From Gelidibacter sp. (lineage in GTDB: Bacteria; Bacteroidota; Bacteroidia; Flavobacteriales; Flavobacteriaceae): DNA of 64,000 nucleotides. The notes under the pieces were generated by a model. The model worked only from the letters and a program-made list of their open reading frames with translations, searched no databases and was not told the DNA's origin. The DNA lies in assembly GCF_039916245.1 (NCBI RefSeq), contig NZ_JBDSLS010000108.1:1230-65229 (forward strand). Direction: 5' to 3'. Below, piece after piece: positions 1 through 8,736 of this stretch. Position numbers and translations under genes: made by a program. Each line of letters starts with the position of its first letter. Within the stretch, counting starts at the first letter, position 1.

Positions 1-2
1 AT

Positions 3-743
3 ATCGACAAGCTCAAAGATGTGAGTGAATTGCAGGAAGAGTTTTTGGATACCTTGCTCCGAAAGAAAGAACCCATTAAAAAAAGCAGACTATTTCAAGC
101 GGCTTCCATCGTTTATTATACTTCCGTAGAACAAAAATTTATTTTTAATCGTTTTGTTCAAGGAAAAATCATAAAAGCGCCAGAAGGTTCAGGTGCTGAA
201 TATATGACTAGCTGGAGCTTTTTTGATGTCGGCTGCAACCGACCATTTATCTGCTATATGTACTTCGATTTTGAAGGTTCTAATATTGAAAACAACAAAA
301 CACAAATTTACGAGGTACTAAAAAACTCAGCCGATAGAGACATGACCTTAGAGGTCATGGCGTATGGCATTGATAGAAAATTAGAGGATATCAAACCAAA
401 ACATATCAAAAGGGTTGATTTGGGACCTTTTCATAATGTTTATGCCAAGGACGAAAATCAAATTACCCATGCCATTTTAAAAAGTATTGCCAATAAAGAG
501 GTGCCATTGGAATCGTATGCATTGTCCTTAAGTATTGACGAAGTGACTTCTGGAAGTGAATTTTCTGAAGGCGGCTATTTCTCCAAACAGATCTTACAAA
601 AATGGAACGGACCCATCCAAAAAAGTTATGTCTTGGCGCCACATCGCATTATTCAGTTATTGTACAGTAAAACACCTGAAATCATGAATGGGTTGGCCAA
701 ACCACCGATTCAGATTGCGGATTTGAAGATAAGTAAAGAGTAG
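3..743 (+). CDS. Hypothetical protein, 5'-truncated by the window edge; first visible gene of the AAA operon
   Basis: Frame is open from position 3 (IDKLKDVSELQEE...), so the GTG at 21 is not the real start; stop TAG 741-743; no recognisable catalytic motif. Confidence 0.8.
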   Translation: MDKLKDVSELQEEFLDTLLRKKEPIKKSRLFQAASIVYYTSVEQKFIFNRFVQGKIIKAPEGSGAEYMTSWSFFDVGCNRPFICYMYFDFEGSNIENNKTQIYEVLKNSADRDMTLEVMAYGIDRKLEDIKPKHIKRVDLGPFHNVYAKDENQITHAILKSIANKEVPLESYALSLSIDEVTSGSEFSEGGYFSKQILQKWNGPIQKSYVLAPHRIIQLLYSKTPEIMNGLAKPPIQIADLKISKE

Positions 744-744
744 A

Positions 745-781
745 AGTCGGCAGTCAGCAGTCTTCAGTCTTCAGTCGGCAG
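745..781. repeat. Heptamer tract, left arm of four-helix-bundle element 1
   Basis: AGTCGGC AGTCAGC AGTCTTC AGTCTTC AGTCGGC AG; reverse complement of the tracts at 916-943 and 1343-1405. Confidence 0.9.
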
Positions 782-835
782 ATATTTCGATTTGAAATTG
801 TTTTAGTCATTAATATCAAAACTGAGGGCTGAAAA

Positions 836-915
836 ATGGATTATAAAGATGATAGTGAACTCTTAAGTTATATGGTGAAAAATTTTGGATTAAAATATTA
901 ACGGCAATCTAAAAG
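836..915 (+). pseudogene. Decayed copy of the 3' end and downstream spacer of the adjacent four-helix-bundle gene
   Basis: 860-901 reads LLSYMVKNFGLKY* versus LLNYMINNPDKFGLK* at 1268-1315; both are followed by GGCAAT(CT/TC)AAAAG and a heptamer arm. Confidence 0.65.
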
Positions 916-943
916 TAAGACTGAAGACTGCCAACTGAAGACT
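916..943. repeat. Heptamer tract, right arm R1, ending 6 nt before ATG 950
   Basis: TAAGACT GAAGACT GCCAACT GAAGACT then AAAAAC ATG. Confidence 0.9.
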
Positions 944-949
944 AAAAAC

Positions 950-1315
950 ATGGGTTTCAAAAAATTATTAGCATATCAGAGAGGATTTGATTTAGCCATG
1001 GATATTTTCCACGTGACAAAGGGTTTTCCGAAATCCGAACAATTTGTATTGACGTCTCAAATGGTAAGATCAAGCCGAGCTGTTTGCTCAGCAATTGCAG
1101 AAGCTTATAGAAAACGACAATATGAAAAGCATTTCAAAAGTAAATTATCTGATGCTGATAGTGAAAATTCTGAAACTCAATTGTGGTTAGATTTTGCTTT
1201 GGCTTGAGATTATATAGCTGAACCTAAGAGAATAGAATTACAACTAAAGAGTGAAGAAATTGGAAGACTCTTAAATTATATGATCAACAATCCCGATAAA
1301 TTCGGATTAAAATAA
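950..1315 (+). pseudogene. Four helix bundle protein (23S rRNA IVS-protein family) with an in-frame TGA at codon 86
   Basis: Family motifs LLAYQRGFDLA, FPKSEQFVLTSQMVRSSRAV, IAEAYRKR, SETQLWLDFA. After TGA 1205-1207 the same frame continues DYIAEPKRIELQLKSEEIGRLLNYMINNPDKFGLK to TAA 1313-1315. Confidence 0.85.
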
Positions 1316-1342
1316 TAATGGCAATTCAAAAGATAGAACACT

Positions 1343-1405
1343 ATAGACTACGGACTGCAGACTGCCAGCTGAGGACTGCCCGCTGAGGACTGCCAACTGA
1401 AGACT
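1343..1405. repeat. Heptamer tract, right arm R2 (9 units), ending 8 nt before the AAA ATG
   Basis: ATAGACT ACGGACT GCAGACT GCCAGCT GAGGACT GCCCGCT GAGGACT GCCAACT GAAGACT then TAAAAAAT ATG. Confidence 0.9.
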
Positions 1406-1413
1406 TAAAAAAT

Positions 1414-3372
1414 ATGCAACAAAACTCCACATTCCCCATAAAACAAAACGAACTCGATATGCTTCGTGATGAAGCAGCATCGTATCTCAAAAGCATCCAA
1501 TGGGAGCAAGGGCAACGTGCCAAAAGCAAAGACAAAAATGCTAAGGACGATTCAATTCTGCTTTATCTTTCTAGAGCCAATAACGGCTCAAATAATCCGG
1601 AAACGACTTCGGTATCTAAAACGATTTTGGAGCTTAAAAAACGTCTGTTGCCAGATTCTATTGCCATTCCTGTGTTACTCAATCAAACCTTATATGCCGT
1701 TCAGGAAGGTCTGACTTTGGGGATTTGGATCAAGGACAGTTATTATCATGCCTCAGGATTATCCAGTTTAAATGAGCGTAAAGCTTCTTTGGACAGCTTG
1801 GGCAAAAGAGAATATGAAAGCAAAATGCACACCGCTACAGCGTTCATGTTGTTTGCCGCGGCCTATAATATTTTACATAACCTTAAATCGTATGCGTCGG
1901 ATGATTTGAGCGTCATGAAACAGAAATTTGCTGGAATTCCTGAGGTGTCGTTATTAACGCCATTAAAAGGTGTGGCCTGTACTTTATTTTATTATGATAA
2001 GTATTTGGGACATCCAGATATTATCAAAAGCGATAAGGACGTGGCTGATTTTACAGTGGTGTTTTTTGAAGCGCTGATTGACGAAATCCAAATGCGAAAA
2101 TCTACTTTAGAATATCAAGAAACTATTTTGGATCGCACTTATAAACTGGAGCATTCAGATTTCGCGATTTCTGGATGGAATAACGCTTTCGCCGGTGCTG
2201 CCAAAAGTATAGAGTTCAACAAAATAAAGTTTGAGCAAATTGTCGGTAATAAAGACGCCAAACATTTTGCCCGGCGTTTAACGGAGCGAATGTTGAGTTA
2301 TGATTTTACGGCAAAAAAAAATCCGTTTCAGGAATTGGGCGGATTTATGCCAGTCTTTATGGGCTACGGCATCCCTGGAACAGGAAAAAGTATGCTCATT
2401 GCCGCTATTGCGACGCGATTAAAAGAGTATTGTGACCATTTAGAAATCCCGTTTTTATTTCATCCGATGCCAGATACCTTGATCTCCACTTTTCAAGGTG
2501 GTTCGGCAGAGAAAATGGTGGAGTGGATGAAACCCATGCAAGATCCCACAAAATTGATTTTTGCGCCGATTGATGATGCCGAAAACAATTTACAGGAGCG
2601 AACCGCTCAAGGGGTTTCTGCCGGTGTTAAAGAAGTCATTGGAGTGTTTTTGAGATATACGGAAGGCGCGTACGCAGTAAATTATGGCAACAGCGCCATC
2701 GGACTATTTACCAATTTACCAGAAATGCTGGATAAAGCCGTGATTTCGCGTGTGCAAGGACGATTCAAAATTGATGGTGCGCGAACGGAAAACGACTTTT
2801 TGGATCAGGATCATTTATGGTGGCGCAAGTTACAGGACACCATGCCAGATTTTATAAATATGAAAAATCCTGATCAATATAAATATCTTCAAGATCAAGG
2901 TTTGGCAAAAAGTATGGGAGAAATCTTGAAATCTGTGGATAAGCCTTCAGAAGAACGAGTCCATGCCGTTTATGATCGTGTTGAAAAGCAGTTTCAAACG
3001 AATGAACATCAGTTTTACGCCAATTTATATAAGGAAATCCAACAGGTTTTTCCATTCTTTTCATCGCGTGATGTCAGGAATATCCAATCGGCCATTTCAT
3101 TGCGTTTAACTGATTTTGATTTGGAAACGGCTTGGTTCGATAATCCGGAATTTTATTTTAAACAGACGTATGATACCAAATTCAACATGCTACAGGAATT
3201 GATGCGCGCTAATATGAAAGGTCTTAATTTTTCAGAAATAAGACGTCAGGAAGTGGTGCGTTATCTTGATAATGTGGCCACTATAGCCGACACCGATTTT
3301 AAACGTCAAGTCGATTCAAGAGTCAATCAGCTCAATATAGAATTGGAAGCACGAAAGAAGTTTGAGAAATAG
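1414..3372 (+). CDS. AAA+ ATPase (classic AAA clade-like) with a long uncharacterised N-terminal region
   Basis: Walker A GIPGTGKS (2368-2391), pore-loop-like LISTFQG, Walker B IFAPIDDAE, sensor-1 LFTN, SRH-like LDKAVISRVQGRF. Confidence 0.85.
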   Translation: MQQNSTFPIKQNELDMLRDEAASYLKSIQWEQGQRAKSKDKNAKDDSILLYLSRANNGSNNPETTSVSKTILELKKRLLPDSIAIPVLLNQTLYAVQEGLTLGIWIKDSYYHASGLSSLNERKASLDSLGKREYESKMHTATAFMLFAAAYNILHNLKSYASDDLSVMKQKFAGIPEVSLLTPLKGVACTLFYYDKYLGHPDIIKSDKDVADFTVVFFEALIDEIQMRKSTLEYQETILDRTYKLEHSDFAISGWNNAFAGAAKSIEFNKIKFEQIVGNKDAKHFARRLTERMLSYDFTAKKNPFQELGGFMPVFMGYGIPGTGKSMLIAAIATRLKEYCDHLEIPFLFHPMPDTLISTFQGGSAEKMVEWMKPMQDPTKLIFAPIDDAENNLQERTAQGVSAGVKEVIGVFLRYTEGAYAVNYGNSAIGLFTNLPEMLDKAVISRVQGRFKIDGARTENDFLDQDHLWWRKLQDTMPDFINMKNPDQYKYLQDQGLAKSMGEILKSVDKPSEERVHAVYDRVEKQFQTNEHQFYANLYKEIQQVFPFFSSRDVRNIQSAISLRLTDFDLETAWFDNPEFYFKQTYDTKFNMLQELMRANMKGLNFSEIRRQEVVRYLDNVATIADTDFKRQVDSRVNQLNIELEARKKFEK

Positions 3373-3417
3373 AGAAAAGAGGGAAGAAAATAGAGTATAG
3401 AAAATAGACAATAGAAG
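3369..3417. repeat. Heptamer tract (ATAGAnn family, 7 units) starting at the AAA stop codon
   Basis: ATAGAGA AAAGAGG GAAGAAA ATAGAGT ATAGAAA ATAGACA ATAGAAG. Confidence 0.8.
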
Positions 3418-3461
3418 TTCATCAATAAACATGAGAGACGAACTGAAATAAAGGCTAATAA

Positions 3462-3502
3462 ATCAGTGGAAATCAGCAGAATCAGCATCATCAGTGTTCT
3501 AT
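3462..3502. repeat. ATCAG 9/10-mer repeat element
   Basis: ATCAG at 3462, 3472, 3481, 3490; the end ATCAGCATCATCAGTGTTCTAT resembles 55280-55301 and 55391-55412. Confidence 0.7.
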
Positions 3503-3574
3503 GAAAATTAAACGAATTATTGTCTAATATGAATGAGTTCATTAAACCGATTAACACCACACAAACAACAAAGA

Positions 3575-4168
3575 ATGTCAGAAAACATAAAAAATATCGT
3601 CCATAAAACCCTTTCTAAAGCTTGGGCAACTTTGCTTCAGATTGATTATGATTATAAATTCAAAGACGGTACATGGAAACGCGTTTCAAGAGAAAGTTAT
3701 GATCGCGGAAATGGCACAGGCGTTTTGTTATATAATATTGAAAAGAGGACTGTTATTTTGACGAAACAATTCCGGATGCCCATTTACGAAACTAATCCTG
3801 ATGAAGCCATGTCACTTGAAGTCTGCGCTGGAGCCATTGATAAAAATCAATCCCCAGAATCGACCATCATTCGAGAAGTGGAAGAAGAAGTGGGGTATAA
3901 AATAAAAGAAGTTAAAAAGGTTCTGGAAGCTTATATGTCTCCTGGAGCATTAACAGAAAAAATGTATTTATTTATTGCGCCTTATACAGATGCTATGAAG
4001 ATTAATGAAGGTGGCGGTGTTGCGGGAGAACATGAAGAGATTGAAGTTTTGGAAATGCCGTTTTTAAAAGCTCTCAAAATGATGGAATCAGGAGACATTC
4101 GAGATGCTAAAACAATCATGTTGTTACAGTATGCACAAATGAATGATTTAATAAAGAATAAAGAATAA
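3575..4168 (+). CDS. nudK: Nudix hydrolase, GDP-mannose pyrophosphatase NudK/YffH-like
   Basis: Nudix box GAIDKNQSPESTIIREVEEEVG; RESYDRGNG, YMSPG and DAKTIMLLQY typical of NudK; ATG 3575 is preferred over 3533. Confidence 0.75.
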   Translation: MSENIKNIVHKTLSKAWATLLQIDYDYKFKDGTWKRVSRESYDRGNGTGVLLYNIEKRTVILTKQFRMPIYETNPDEAMSLEVCAGAIDKNQSPESTIIREVEEEVGYKIKEVKKVLEAYMSPGALTEKMYLFIAPYTDAMKINEGGGVAGEHEEIEVLEMPFLKALKMMESGDIRDAKTIMLLQYAQMNDLIKNKE

Positions 4169-4226
4169 AGAATAAAGAATAAAGAATAAAGAATAAAGAA
4201 TAAAGAATAAAGAATAAAGAATAAAG
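4150..4226. repeat. Perfect tandem repeat (AATAAAG)x11
   Basis: 77 bp counted directly; the nudK stop TAA 4166-4168 lies inside it; (TAGAAAC)x2 follows at 4234-4247. Confidence 0.95.
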
Positions 4227-4253
4227 TTTATTTTAGAAACTAGAAACCAGTTA

Positions 4254-5489
4254 ATGGAAAAGCTAAAAGCAGCACATTTATTTAGAGATGAACTCATCCC
4301 AATTAGTGGGAAGCTTGTTGAGCGTTACAATCAGTGCCTGAAAACTTTGGGAATTGCTGAAACAAAACTCTCGGGTTTTTCTATTGACGGAATTGGTTGG
4401 AGTCCTGAAATTGCTGAAGAAAAAAAGGAAATTCATTATCTAAATAATGGAGAGGCCAATCCAAACGGTATCATCATAACGCCATTGCAAAAGGGAAAAC
4501 CTGTGTATGTGCCTTTTCATACTTTTGATAGGGATATGATGCAGCACATCTTTAAAACCTATGAAGAAAAAATCAATGATATTACGAGAGACTGTGCGAT
4601 TTGCATTGATTTTGACCAATATATCGATGCCTTTTATGAGCCTTTAGATATTTTAAAATACAAGGATATTTCCATAAGTTTTAAACTGATCAACAATCTT
4701 GATAAGGAGCAAAAAAAGCAGTTTCAACTGATTGATAGCTTTAAACAGGGCAATAATTTTATTGATGAACACCTGCAGCAACAGTTGTTGGACTCGGCAA
4801 AAACCTATGGCGATTTAAGACACCGAAATTTAGAGCTCAATGAGCTTTATTTCTCAACGGATTCGTTTTACACCAGCGCATTTGGAGGTGTGTATCTATT
4901 ACGAGATTTCATAGCGCCAATTATGGTGTTCGAAGATGAGAAATGGCATAAGGAAGCCATAAAAGATACGTCTCATGAGGTTTTTATTTATCACATTTCG
5001 CAACCAGAATTGCTCGATAAATTACAAGACCATTTAATTATCGAATATGATTTAGAAGAAGTGGTAAAGACACCACGCTATGAACGTATCAAAAAATTCA
5101 TGTTTTCTCAGATTTTAAAGGACACCCAAAACCCAATAAAAGATATTTTGGATGACAAAGTGCTGTTCAAAGGCTATTTGAACAAAATGACGATTGAAGA
5201 CCGTAAGAAAGTCATGAGTGTTGAGCTTTATCTCGAAAAAATGGAAGTCAGCAACCAATATAAATTGGCAGATATTGTAGATGTCAAACTTTTTGAAGCC
5301 TTGCAACAACCGCATTCATCATTGAGTCCGAAGCATCAGGATTTGATTTGGAAATTATTGGTTAATATTTCGCCTTTGGATGTTTTATTCTTGTATTGGT
5401 ATGATAAAGAGCAGTTTTATAAAAATTATAAGGATTGGGATGAATCGTTGAAAGATTGGGTGATTGAAACCATCCGTAACAATATATAG
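4254..5489 (+). CDS. DUF6638-like protein of unknown function
   Basis: 411-aa ORF; LVERYNQCL, FSIDGIGWSPEI, YLNNGEANP and FYTSAFGGVYLLRD match my recollection of DUF6638 (not searched). Confidence 0.6.
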   Translation: MEKLKAAHLFRDELIPISGKLVERYNQCLKTLGIAETKLSGFSIDGIGWSPEIAEEKKEIHYLNNGEANPNGIIITPLQKGKPVYVPFHTFDRDMMQHIFKTYEEKINDITRDCAICIDFDQYIDAFYEPLDILKYKDISISFKLINNLDKEQKKQFQLIDSFKQGNNFIDEHLQQQLLDSAKTYGDLRHRNLELNELYFSTDSFYTSAFGGVYLLRDFIAPIMVFEDEKWHKEAIKDTSHEVFIYHISQPELLDKLQDHLIIEYDLEEVVKTPRYERIKKFMFSQILKDTQNPIKDILDDKVLFKGYLNKMTIEDRKKVMSVELYLEKMEVSNQYKLADIVDVKLFEALQQPHSSLSPKHQDLIWKLLVNISPLDVLFLYWYDKEQFYKNYKDWDESLKDWVIETIRNNI

Positions 5490-5545
5490 CTAAGAGCTAG
5501 AAGCATGAAGAATAGAGTTGGAAGATTGAAGCACGAAGCATGAAG
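5487..5545. repeat. Heptamer tract, left arm of four-helix-bundle element 2
   Basis: TAGCTAA GAGCTAG AAGCATG AAGAATA GAGTTGG AAGATTG AAGCACG AAGCATG AAG; begins with the upstream stop TAG. Confidence 0.85.
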
Positions 5546-5844
5546 TTTTATATCTTTATAATTTAGATATTAGAGAGTTGTAATTTGAAGGTTTGATTCT
5601 TTCGCAAAAACGCGAGGAATATTTTGCAACATAAAACTTTAGCAATAAAATAAGAAATGATGTACGTAATGACTCGGTTGAGTTTTTAATATTTCATCGA
5701 TAAAACGTATAAGAAATGTCATTTTTTGAAGTTTTGGAATATAAACTGAAGTTAAACTAAAGTGTTTTGCTTTCAGTTTCTTGCTTCAAACCTAAATATA
5801 AGTTTATGATTCAAATAGAAATAATTTTATTAAATAGCAATAGT

Positions 5845-5879
5845 CAAGCTTCGTGCTCCACGCTTCCAGCTTCCAACTT
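5845..5879. repeat. Heptamer tract, right arm R1 of element 2, 8 nt before ATG 5888
   Basis: CAAGCTT CGTGCTC CACGCTT CCAGCTT CCAACTT; reverse complement of the 5487-5545 consensus. Confidence 0.85.
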
Positions 5880-5887
5880 TTTTTATC

Positions 5888-6248
5888 ATGAAATTTAAAT
5901 TTGAAAATTTAATAATTTGGCAGAAAGCGATGGACTTGGGAGAGGAGATGAATGCTTTAGCATATAAGTTTCCAAAAGAAGAGCTATATAATCTTTCTTC
6001 CCAAGTTAGAAGAGCGTCAGATTCTATAGCATTGAATATTTCAGAAGGTTCAATTTTGCAATCAGATGCTGAATATAGAAAATTCTTAGGTTATGCAATA
6101 AGATCAACTGCCCGAAGTAGTGACGTGTTTGCATAAAGCGAAAAGAAGAAATTGTTTGAATGAAGACGATTTTCTTAAATTCTATAAAGCATGTTTTGAT
6201 TTAATGAATATGACCATTGCATTTAGGAACAGAATTAAAAAAGCATGA
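5888..6248 (+). pseudogene. Four helix bundle protein (IVS-protein family), frameshifted by one extra C
   Basis: FKFENLIIWQKAMDL, FPKEELYNLSSQVRRASDSIALNISEGS. Removing one C from GCCCGAA (6110-6116) restores EVVTCLHKAKRRNCLNEDDFLKFYKACFDLMNMTIAFRNRIKKA to TGA 6246-6248. Confidence 0.85.
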
Positions 6249-6421
6249 AGCACGAATTTGGATGCGCGAAGTAATACTTTTTTTACCACAATAATTGTTA
6301 AACTTCGCGCTTCATGCTCCCAACTTCAAACATAAATATGATAACTTATGATTGCATTAGAAATAGAATTAATCATCTGCAAGTTCAAAGCTTCGGGCTT
6401 CGAGCTTCAAACTTCCAGCTT
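6241..6421. repeat. Heptamer tracts after element-2 gene: left-type 6241-6271, right-type 6299-6333 and 6380-6421
   Basis: AAGCATG AAGCACG AATTTGG ATGCGCG AAG / TAAACTT CGCGCTT CATGCTC CCAACTT / AAAGCTT CGGGCTT CGAGCTT CAAACTT CCAGCTT then TTACAC ATG (6428). Confidence 0.85.
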
Positions 6422-6427
6422 TTACAC

Positions 6428-6946
6428 ATGACACTAGAAATTATCGTTTTTATCGGCTCAATTTTATTCGGAATTCTTCTGTATTGGAGAGAGTCAAACG
6501 GCAACGGACTGTATCGTTTTTTTAATAAAATGATGTATTCCAAAAAGCTTCAGATGTCGCCTAATGATCCTACAGGTTTTCTATATCAACAAAAATTCTT
6601 GCTGCGGTTGGTATTTGTTGGAATGATATTTCTGGTTGGAATTTTGATTGCGAGATTCCTGATTCCAATTGATGTTGCTACGATTTCAGTATTTGCTTCG
6701 AGTATTGTCGGTACGCTTTTGGGAACTTATATTGGCGGATTTATTTTAAAGTCTGAAAAAATAATTGACGCGCAAAGTGATTCTATAGAGCGAAAATTGG
6801 ATGGTGCCATTGATCAAGGTCGTGATTTTATTAAGGATATTTCAACACGACAACCAAAAGTTGTAGAAGAAGCAGAAAAGGAAGTTCTCAAAGATCCGAA
6901 TCAAAAAAGTGCGCGAGAACGCTTGAAGGATAAAGGATTGATGTGA
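6428..6946 (+). CDS. Hypothetical membrane protein (about 3-4 TM helices, charged C-terminal tail)
   Basis: The ORF-track start 6314 runs through repeat DNA; ATG 6428 starts the hydrophobic segment MTLEIIVFIGSILFGILLYW. Confidence 0.75.
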   Translation: MTLEIIVFIGSILFGILLYWRESNGNGLYRFFNKMMYSKKLQMSPNDPTGFLYQQKFLLRLVFVGMIFLVGILIARFLIPIDVATISVFASSIVGTLLGTYIGGFILKSEKIIDAQSDSIERKLDGAIDQGRDFIKDISTRQPKVVEEAEKEVLKDPNQKSARERLKDKGLM

Positions 6947-6992
6947 TTTTTGAGTAGTGAATAACGATTGAAGATTAACGATTTTTGAATTT
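6944..6992. repeat. Degenerate heptamer tract (nGAnTnn) starting at the stop codon
   Basis: TGATTTT TGAGTAG TGAATAA CGATTGA AGATTAA CGATTTT TGAATTT. Confidence 0.65.
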
Positions 6993-7038
6993 CTGATTAT
7001 ATCAACTTTACGACAAACAACACACAACAGAAAAGGCC

Positions 7039-8736
7039 ATGCTAAAAAAATATTGGAATAGAGGAAGTAGACAAAAAACCATAACCATCATTGGAGTAGT
7101 GGTTTTAATAGCATTATTGTTTTTCCTTCGTGATGATTATCAACCCTTTTTATTATGGATCAGGAAATTCATTTTTGTAATTCTGGTGATAGGTTTGGTA
7201 TTGTTTTTCGGGTTGCGAAGTTTTCGAAACTCGGTCGGCGTTGGACGGCGCATTGGTATTTTGGCACTTTTAGTGTTGTTTTTTGGATCGCTTTACTACA
7301 TTGGTTGGCACTTTAAGATGTATGATTATATGAAAACCTACAATGTTTTCAATCATTTGAATAAAGTTCAAATCAACGAATTGCCGCTTACACAAAACGA
7401 ACGCATCCAACCATTGCGCAATATTTTCTCTATGGCCAACGAATCGGTTGGAGAAACGAAGGACGTGTCGTTGCCGCATTTGGTAAGAGTCGATGGCGAG
7501 AACAGATGGACGATGGCTATCCAGCCGTCTGAAAAATATACCATGCAGCAAATCAGTGAGAATACTGAAGAGATCTTTTCAGTTTCCAGTACCTCGCCAT
7601 TTCCAAGGTTTTCCAGTGAAAATCGCATTCCTGTGACCTTTTCTATTGGCGAATCTTTAAAGTTTAGTAGAAATACTTATCATGCCGTGGTACAACGTTT
7701 CAATATTTTTCAGTTGTTTACCATGGAGCCTGGAGATACGTTTTACATGAAAAACGATTCAGGAAAATGGGTAGAAGTGGTGAGTTTGATCAAATGGAAG
7801 GGCTTCTTTTTTCCATATCCAACTTTTGGAGGTGTGATGGTCATTGATAGTGGGAAACACGACTTCAATGATTATGTGGAACGTATCTTGATCGGGAAAG
7901 GCACATATATCAGTCCAGAGGAAATGAAAAATCATCCGTTTTTGACCAAGCAGAATACGCTCTCAGAAAAAGTGTCACGCTTACAAGCGGAATCTTTAAA
8001 GTTTTTAGGCGGATTTACGGATCCATTGCCATGGAAAATGCAAACGGCCGTAAAAATTCCCGATATGCCAGACGATCAAAATGAACAGCCTTTTGTAACC
8101 GATTTCAATTTTGAGGGCGTCGATGCTAAAGCTTATAATGGTTTGTACCATTGGTTCGGATTGGAGCCCATTGGCGATGAGCGCACAAGTTTGGCCTATA
8201 GCGTATTTGTGCCTGCTGATGGCACCGATAAATTATATTATTATGATCATGCGGCCAGGAAACAAGGTTACGCCGGAGTTTCCGCAATGCCTTTAAAAAT
8301 CATCGAATCCCGTAAGGAGGTGGATTGGTCGGTAAATAAACCTGTTGAATTTAGACCATATATTAAAGATATCGCGGGTAGAAGACGGATGTTTTTCTTA
8401 GGCACCGTTTCAGCAGTAAAAGAATATTCAAAAAAGTTTGATGGATCGGCCACACCAGATTTAGCACTGATTGATAGTGAATATCGTGATGTCATCTGGA
8501 TTGATGTCAAACATCCAAGTCAATGGGATAAAACCGTCTATGATCAATTGAACGAAGCGTGGAGAGCCAGTGAAGGCATTGGTTATTATTATGATGAAGT
8601 CAAAACGCCATCTGACTTGGATATGATGCAAAAAGAAATGGATTCAATTCAGTCCATTCCCAAAGTGAATGCGAATACAGATCAAATAAAAAAATTACAA
8701 CGTCAGATTGATTCTTTAAAATCGGTTGAGAATTGA
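7039..8736 (+). CDS. Hypothetical membrane-anchored protein (3 N-terminal TM helices, large soluble domain)
   Basis: 565-aa ORF; three hydrophobic stretches in the first 90 aa; short helical C-terminus. Confidence 0.8.
   Translation: MLKKYWNRGSRQKTITIIGVVVLIALLFFLRDDYQPFLLWIRKFIFVILVIGLVLFFGLRSFRNSVGVGRRIGILALLVLFFGSLYYIGWHFKMYDYMKTYNVFNHLNKVQINELPLTQNERIQPLRNIFSMANESVGETKDVSLPHLVRVDGENRWTMAIQPSEKYTMQQISENTEEIFSVSSTSPFPRFSSENRIPVTFSIGESLKFSRNTYHAVVQRFNIFQLFTMEPGDTFYMKNDSGKWVEVVSLIKWKGFFFPYPTFGGVMVIDSGKHDFNDYVERILIGKGTYISPEEMKNHPFLTKQNTLSEKVSRLQAESLKFLGGFTDPLPWKMQTAVKIPDMPDDQNEQPFVTDFNFEGVDAKAYNGLYHWFGLEPIGDERTSLAYSVFVPADGTDKLYYYDHAARKQGYAGVSAMPLKIIESRKEVDWSVNKPVEFRPYIKDIAGRRRMFFLGTVSAVKEYSKKFDGSATPDLALIDSEYRDVIWIDVKHPSQWDKTVYDQLNEAWRASEGIGYYYDEVKTPSDLDMMQKEMDSIQSIPKVNANTDQIKKLQRQIDSLKSVEN

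Follow-up and report, generated by a model that had tools for sequence, protein, structure and literature searches.

Why should a 938-nt spacer between two genes of an operon hold a four-helix-bundle gene enclosed by inverted arrays of a 7-nt word? The question is raised by a 64,000-nt stretch of Gelidibacter sp. (the window, to which all plain positions refer) on contig C108 of a draft genome of 3.48 Mb and 37% GC. Here such a cassette, called element 2, lies between a DUF6638 gene and a gene for a membrane protein (TM); a second cassette, element 1, was used for comparison. A preliminary description had taken the two for independent insertions of one layout, with each gene subfamily possibly tied to its own heptamer. 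We found that they are indeed separate cassettes of two diverged clades of the family PF05635 sharing that layout, and that the 4-nt core of the heptamer is, judged by sequence comparison, specific to the protein clade across many genera and gene junctions, GRWG accompanying the clade of element 2 (clade B) and CAGT/ACTG that of element 1 (clade A). In the reading that we put forward, and to which we give a roughly even chance, element 2 is a passenger cassette of long standing that has been passed on vertically, is now decaying and resembles the intervening sequences (IVSs) of rRNA, and its arrays are probable recognition sites for its own protein, which resembles Avd, the accessory protein of diversity-generating retroelements (DGRs).

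The association of core and clade was assessed in a family-wide sample of one genome per genus. In clade A (20 cassettes from 18 genera, 60–81% protein identity), CAGT lies upstream and ACTG downstream of the gene in every cassette, with 3–13 upstream copies of CAGT in 19 of the 20 and one copy in locus L120. These cassettes occupy at least six junctions (ffh-folD, HADH-DUF1015, x-hemN, nqr, one other and that of the present window), and clade B, at 62–69% identity, occupies about 10, with words of the form GAAGNNN, GATGNNN or GGTGNNN. In clade B, the sense strand reads GRWG on the upstream side of the gene and the complement of GRWG on the downstream side. Four or more periodic copies of CAGT were counted in 22 of 30 clade-A cassettes, in none of 21 clade-B cassettes and in none of the 79 other cassettes; the corresponding numbers for GRWG are 2/30, 18/21 and 0/79. 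A further 80 clade-A loci from a public genome collection, spread over at least 12 contexts and including other orders of Bacteroidota such as Marinilabiliales, show the expected polarity in at least one arm in 70 cases and the opposite polarity in four loci per arm. Since the same clade and core recur at 10–12 or more different junctions, movement of whole cassettes, gene together with arms, is implied, though only at the scale of the family or phylum. The proposal of the preliminary description thus holds for the 4-nt core and fails for the whole heptamer. Shared 6-mers between the arms of within-genome paralogs did not correlate with protein identity (rho 0.04), a test that was too strict because only the core is conserved and that was therefore replaced by the periodic-core counts, and clustering showed that cassettes of one protein clade have the core in common and differ from locus to locus in the three variable bases.

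A single genome can contain several cores, each associated with its own clade, and the four-helix protein is the sole clade-specific component able to read them, which makes it the likely reader of the arrays. The oligomeric protein of a cassette would recognize its own tandem arrays at one core every 7 nt, in a mode resembling that of the ring-shaped RNA binders TRAP and HutP. The targets of HutP are UAG triplets set 4 nt apart, which gives a 7-nt period, and TRAP is likewise a ring-shaped RNA-binding attenuation protein; the likeness would lie in the proposed mode only, an oligomer on short conserved cores split by non-conserved spacers, whereas neither protein has a sequence or fold relation to the four-helix proteins. 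In the operon transcript, the inverted arrays could pair and loop out the cassette, which would bring the upstream stop beside the downstream start, as in rRNA IVSs that bear an open reading frame (ORF); by analogy only, RNase III might process the arms. Over long time scales, the cassettes would move as gene-plus-arms units.

A pure IVS-like RNA element would do without such a reader: RNase III would cut the stem, which would free the four-helix mRNA and split the host cistrons from each other, and the core would be conserved through inheritance and the need for self-complementarity. We regard this alternative as unlikely on the whole, while taking it seriously. For a stem, any self-complementary sequence would do; the cassettes nevertheless retain their core and its polarity at 60% protein identity, in different orders and at different junctions, although the variable bases are exchanged. 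Nor can a host nuclease shared by all cassettes explain clade specificity where different cores occur in one genome. What speaks for it is the architecture of element 2 (Table 1).

Table 1. Features of element 2, its host genes and the comparison cassette (window positions)
Feature	Position	Strand	Description
Element 1 (comparison)	745..1413	+	Clade-A gene 950-1315; CAGT-NNN left arm, two ACTG right arms, 3' ghost at 859-943
Upstream host gene, DUF6638 (PF20343)	4254..5489	+	Stop TAG 5487-5489 abuts left arm; orthologs 72-92% identical in 16 relatives
Left arm L1	5500-5549	+	Starts 10 nt past stop; seven 7-nt units, core GRWG
Conserved box TTTTATATCTTTAT	5546..5559	+	Directly after L1; identical in L001, L003, L005, L006
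ORF-less filler between L1 and duplicated module	5560..5783	+	Weak arm R0 at 5769-5791
Module copy 1: arm tail, remnant of four-helix gene 3' end, right arm R1	5784..5881	+	R1 = 5846-5880
Four-helix-bundle gene (PF05635 / TIGR02436), frameshifted	5888..6248	+	ORF 5888-6136, then +1 frame to TGA 6246-6248
Short hairpin L2/R2	6241..6333	+	L2 = 6241-6271, R2 = 6299-6333; 27-nt loop; present in minimum-free-energy fold
Module copy 2: arm tail, remnant of gene 3' end, right arm R3	6324..6423	+	Remnant ~6340-6386; R3 = 6387-6421
Downstream host gene, membrane protein (TM)	6428..6946	+	No family match

The arms lie where the preliminary description had placed them: a left arm at the upstream stop, a reverse-complement arm (R1) ending 8 nt before ATG 5888, a new left arm with a right arm pairing to it, and a final right arm (R3) ending 6 nt before ATG 6428. 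L1 consists of the units GAAGCAT, GAAGAAT, AGAGTTG, GAAGATT, GAAGCAC, GAAGCAT and GAAGTTT. It forms inverted pairs with R1 (45 nt at 76%) and with R3 (34 nt at 82%); in the short hairpin, whose left half L2 overlaps the last codons and the stop of the four-helix gene, GCGCGAAG complements CTTCGCGC (89% across 18 nt). Pooled over the arms, identity is 0.59 at lag 7 and 0.56 at lag 14, and 0.13–0.27 at other lags. To score the arms, we aligned the upstream flank locally with the reverse-complemented downstream flank, using 215 ORFs of similar size as controls. Element 2 scores 45, compared with a control median of 21 and a 99th percentile of 30, and the 69 full-length genes from 13 genomes of the genus have a median of 32. 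The RNA fold of 5487–6430, suggested as a check in the preliminary description, reaches -230.8 kcal/mol (z = -5.0 versus shuffles); it pairs L1 with R1 and L2 with R2, and its outermost helix joins the region after the upstream stop to the end of R3, next to the downstream start. RNAduplex on 250-nt flanks was dropped as a measure since it returned sprawling interactions. No Rfam match was found in 5300–6600, and PADLOC returned no match.

Element 2 is thus bracketed by complementary flanks able to form a long stem, as in the ORF-bearing IVSs of 23S rRNA, which Leptospira has as well. In Coxiella burnetii, the S23p IVS carries a PF05635 ORF in a stem loop and is regarded as selfish; its excision by RNase III was shown experimentally, and its ORF is reported as not expressed and degenerating (PMC4990558). 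The family, the placement of the ORF in the loop of a long flanking stem and the proneness of the ORF to decay, here by frameshift, are the same in both, and this shared design, together with the fold, favors the pure RNA element. The cassette differs in lying between protein genes of an operon, outside the 23S rRNA helix that defines the location of these IVSs, in having arms that are 7-nt arrays with a clade-specific core, and in encoding a protein under strong purifying selection in relatives, in contrast to the degenerating Coxiella ORF.

The pairing of the arms was tested further, with results on both sides. Left and right arms of one cassette share variable triplets at 0.37 versus 0.16 for shuffled partners, a value reached in 1 of 1000 shuffles, which indicates a relation between the two arms beyond the use of a common word. 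With the order of units permuted, complementarity drops in half of the loci (median z 2.2), a result that is biased upward, as the arms were trimmed on the real alignment, and that we count as weak support. Both observations would suit a stem maintained as RNA, and the shared triplets also count in favor of the reading that we put forward. Mismatches in the arms, on the other hand, carry no wobble signature, with G·U (68) not above A·C (78) and with many transversions (176); the lack of a G·U excess disfavors strong selection for an RNA stem. A pentamer-sized array of five units, considered as a candidate, is unsupported, arm lengths ranging from 2 to more than 13 units.

The gene had been read as encoding a four-helix protein, and the family assignment stands (PF05635 at 75.1 bits, cut-off 33.8, for the truncated ORF, covering profile positions 1–69 of 106), although the preliminary description had missed a frameshift. 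Judged against five orthologs, the frame break is one extra C in the CCC run at 6111–6113, and the new frame ends inside L2. The window copy is therefore not an intact ORF of about 115–125 aa over the whole profile, in contrast to the orthologs in the relatives L003, L005, L011 and L012; that of L003 matches TIGR02436 at 94.6 bits (cut-off 24). By sequence, a clade-B paralog matches PDB 2GSC (E = 1e-15), and 2GSC and 2RLD hold five chains each. Clade-B proteins have isoelectric points (pI) of 9.2–9.6. We found no other Pfam or NCBIfam domain in the protein of about 120 aa. The present genome has 18 family matches, nearly all of them intergenic and with locus-specific inverted 7-periodic arms, and about 18% of the 121 family matches in the genus carry stops. 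Several further copies in the present genome bear a single TGA, and one four-helix protein has its best outside match in Gelidibacter algens (91%).

Avd is a pentameric, positively charged four-helix barrel acting in an RNA-handling complex (PMC6182149; PMC10053308). The cassette proteins belong to a homologous fold and family, the clade-A protein matching NF033474 (E = 2.8e-7) and the ORF of element 1 matching PF22296 (E = 2.7e-7); against this, NF033474 reaches 30.8 bits for clade A where its cut-off is 80, and clade B has no match. Among the ORFs scanned in window 1–8736, no reverse transcriptase domain was found and no template or variable repeat lies nearby, the neighbors being an AAA ATPase, NUDIX, DUF6638 and membrane proteins. 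With the Avd model below its cut-off and no reverse transcriptase in the vicinity, the cassette, by its sequence content, is not a DGR.

How old is the cassette at this junction? The DUF6638 gene was located in 16 relatives and the junction downstream of it compared. The filled/empty variation that the preliminary description had set as a test does exist: an orthologous four-helix gene with the same arm words is present in 6 of the 16, and the gene is absent in 10. In eight of these, the site of the cassette is occupied by a hairpin element of about 200 nt that is unrelated to it, and among the eight the closest relative, L002, keeps a solo right arm before the ATG; the other two, from other genera, have other spacers, one of only 83 nt. 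The filled state is scattered on the DUF6638 tree, with six changes, at least four of them forced by well-supported branches. The four-helix orthologs show dN/dS (nonsynonymous over synonymous divergence) of 0.02–0.13 at dS of 0.4 to more than 2, and their tree and distances are roughly congruent with those of the flanking gene. Given this high dS, low dN/dS and agreement with the flanking gene, the cassette at the DUF6638-TM junction is best read as an old resident under strong purifying selection that has been repeatedly lost or replaced, and not as a recent insertion. For the genus, the earlier view of independent insertions at both junctions is not supported; the cassettes there are old operon residents with ortholog dS of about 0.4 to more than 2 and a tree roughly following the flanking gene. 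The frameshift in the window copy and a TGA in L006 must be recent.

The arms are constrained as well, since arm segments are identical at synonymous saturation while spacers have diverged past alignment. The proximal part of L1, GAAGCACGAAGCATGAAG, and the box TTTTATATCTTTAT are identical over about 33 nt in L001, L005 and L006 despite saturated synonymous sites, and the spacer from the gene to the right arm cannot be aligned even between close relatives. L001 itself has GCTTCAAACTT before the downstream ATG, and four of the five other filled relatives keep it, L012 reading GTTTCAAACTT; the solo arm of L002, GCTTCCAACTTCCAACTT, is related to GCTTCAAACTT and not identical to it. In relatives with the simple layout, the box TTTTATATCTTTAT lies about 10–15 nt 5' of the four-helix ATG. 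It resembles the -7 promoter element of Bacteroidota (TAnnTTTG), and the cassette may own a promoter.

A third possibility is an element acting at the DNA level, whose arrays would act like terminal inverted repeats: the four-helix protein or a host factor would bind them as DNA, and they would mobilize or duplicate the cassette, in parallel to RAYT genes with their inverted REP flanks. A gene between inverted copies of a repeat with further copies scattered through the genome fits this picture, as do a clade-specific core recurring with the same clade at many junctions, the absence of an RNA wobble signature from the arm mismatches, and tandem duplications of the cassette and of its 3' end with the right arm. 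We nonetheless hold it rather improbable: the protein of about 120 aa has no nuclease, recombinase or transposase domain, no target-site duplication was seen, no genome of the genus contains near-identical dispersed copies, one tandem pair and one duplicated contig excepted, and only losses are seen at the DUF6638-TM junction. In REPtrons, a single gene (RAYT) is flanked by an inverted short repeat (REP) that is dispersed intergenically, and the gene clade is matched to the repeat type. The cassettes resemble these in logic only, through their flanking inverted arrays, their clade-specific core and dispersed tracts that resemble arm words above shuffles; they differ in that the protein is not an HUH/Y1 transposase and that the repeats are tandem 7-nt arrays instead of palindromes of about 35 nt.

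The extra arms of element 2 are, by their repeat structure, a partial tandem duplication of the gene 3' end plus right arm and not a second insertion. A direct repeat links 5784–5881 with 6324–6423 (71% over 100 nt, E = 1.7e-13), its unit comprising an arm tail, a remnant of the last ~45 nt of the gene and a right arm, and the gene 3' end and right arm are likewise duplicated in element 1. In the relative L050 (G008:C350:15331-18171), the whole cassette is duplicated in tandem, with proteins 98% identical and a stop in one copy; arrays of AGAGAAG / CTCTTCT lie between the copies. Given the direct repeats in both elements and the fresh duplicate in a relative, the layout described earlier, stop, left arm, right arm, ATG, gene, right arm, ATG, results from partial tandem duplication and not from two insertions. 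The gene of element 1 is broken too, by an in-frame TGA (1205–1207) at the position of a Cys codon of the orthologs (ALACDYI). We do not claim a ghost gene between L1 and R1, where the similarity of 5582–5610 to 5898–5926 (76%) is marginal (E = 0.004) and a hidden Markov model search of the six-frame translation of the filler gave nothing significant.

Heptamers are far more widespread in this genome than the cassettes are. At a TRF score of at least 40, period-7 tandem arrays number 140, compared with 0 in a Markov shuffle, and periods 7, 14 and 21 are hugely over-represented; we counted 311 heptamer tracts, 248 of them intergenic. CAGT-oriented tracts abut stop codons, and ACTG-oriented tracts lie nearer the next start. 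Only 16 of 256 tracts have an inverted partner within 1.5 kb at a score of at least 32, compared with 3 controls; the idea that all tracts are cassette arms was rejected, as most lack an inverted partner. Among tracts far from four-helix genes, 55% of the words are within one mismatch of cassette-arm words, versus 36 ± 5.5% when shuffled. In an operon of the paa type (G000:C97:735-2665), three consecutive junctions share the hairpin word GATTGTT/AATCAAC; two of these hairpins are empty, with loops of 13–17 nt, and the third holds a four-helix gene in its loop. These hairpins, like the similarity of distant words to arm words, count in favor of the reading that we put forward.

Such abundance might suggest that replication slippage in AT-rich spacers makes the arrays, that the four-helix gene merely tolerates such spacers and that the arms are functionless. 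Heptanucleotides are described as the commonest long simple repeats in many prokaryotes, with slippage proposed as their source (Mrazek 2007, cited in PMC4679880). Slippage alone indeed appears to make many arrays, as is indicated by the species-specific, apparently locally amplified words at the spacer between the NUDIX and DUF6638 genes: in the window (4160–4236) it holds ten copies of AATAAAG overlapping the NUDIX stop codon, and in relatives (L002-L014) AATTAAG x6 plus GAAACAA x5, GAAACAA x7 or TAGAGAA types. This spacer is about 10 nt long in another genus. As an account of the cassettes, slippage with functionless arms is very improbable and already disfavored by the inverted-arm scores of four-helix genes, far above those of control ORFs, by the arm segments conserved despite saturated synonymous sites, and by a clade-specific core of fixed polarity.

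Several observations weigh against recognition of the arrays by the cassette's own protein, and some of them also favor slippage. Of 255 intergenic tracts, only 13 have a four-helix gene within 700 nt, which leaves 95% of tracts not beside one, even if the proportion is still about 7-fold above chance, and the words of the NUDIX-DUF6638 spacer differ between species and seem to derive from the sequence at the stop codon there. The counts of core by clade overstate the sample because they include orthologs, which are not independent, the independent units being about 10–12 junction types per clade. At the level of genomes, co-occurrence of a clade with its cognate array across 100 genera is strong for clade A and CAGT (odds ratio 9.2, p = 5e-6) and not specific, cross-pairs giving odds ratios of 3–7. 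The arms are only 76–82% complementary, the dominant unit differs between left and right in 12 of 18 cassettes, and the missing wobble signature counts here as well. The clade-A protein is not basic (pI 6.6). Finally, the copy in the present genome is broken and unable itself to act unless the frameshift is an assembly error.

A broader proposal, which we advance only tentatively and would sooner doubt than believe, is that stand-alone Avd-like four-helix proteins may be sequence-specific readers of 7-nt arrays, with an own core per clade, and that the heptamers of Bacteroidota, cyanobacteria and Beggiatoaceae would be their binding sites. One known heptanucleotide class is that of the cyanobacterial short tandemly repeated repetitive (STRR) sequences. 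For the TAACTGA repeats of Beggiatoaceae, cyanobacteria and Bacteroidetes, S1, Csp or Csr proteins have been proposed as partners, and the four-helix family is not mentioned (PMC4679880). The arrays described here agree with known heptamer repeats in being tandem, intergenic, close to start or stop codons and far above chance, and TAACTGA contains the ACTG core in the orientation seen before start codons in the present genome; in contrast to the cassettes, the papers on TAACTGA and on long simple sequence repeats (LSSRs) name no partner gene. We found no paper linking the PF05635 family to heptamer repeats in the literature searched. The function of the large PF05635 family is unknown, intergenic heptanucleotide repeats have lacked an explanation since the 1990s, and the two have been described separately until now; the match of clade and core across orders and unrelated junctions merges both puzzles into one testable hypothesis. 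If the proteins are such readers, the tracts could form a post-transcriptional regulon, or a repeat family seeded or spread by the protein as RAYTs do for REPs. The IVS-like reading of the cassette, if true, would extend the ORF-in-stem design of rRNA intervening sequences to ordinary operons. For the locus itself, the picture is corrected from a fresh insertion to an old, decaying resident with duplicated arm modules.

Since arrays break assembly, the counts of tracts and cassettes are lower bounds. Many contigs of the draft start or end in heptamer arrays (C1, C110, C125, C147, C148, C149, C151), and one four-helix gene is split between C10 and C149. Elsewhere in the genome (G000:C232:5280-5877), inverted TAGTGGG/TAGAGGG arrays surround about 450 nt without an ORF, and may mark a cassette, by now wholly decayed, of the clade that has this word in relatives. 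Arrays of clade A (L174, L176, L198 and others) often alternate CAGTTTT and CAGTCKC, giving a higher-order period of 14 nt that matches the genome-wide excess of period 14.

At the junction studied, the hairpin that replaces the cassette in L002, L004, L007-L010, L013 and L014 contains TTCCTTCCC...GGGAAGG and GGAGGAG sub-hairpins and is preceded by a conserved TTTTTTAGACTAATTTTA; Rfam gives it sub-threshold matches to long-hairpin families only. The upstream spacers of L004, L005, L006 and L009 carry a GC-rich palindromic insert of the CCTGCCCGTCCGC...GCGGGAAAC type in or beside the heptamer tracts. Between the NUDIX and DUF6638 genes, L003, L007, L008 and L012 have an extra gene of about 200 aa, apparently for a membrane protein, which is absent from the window.

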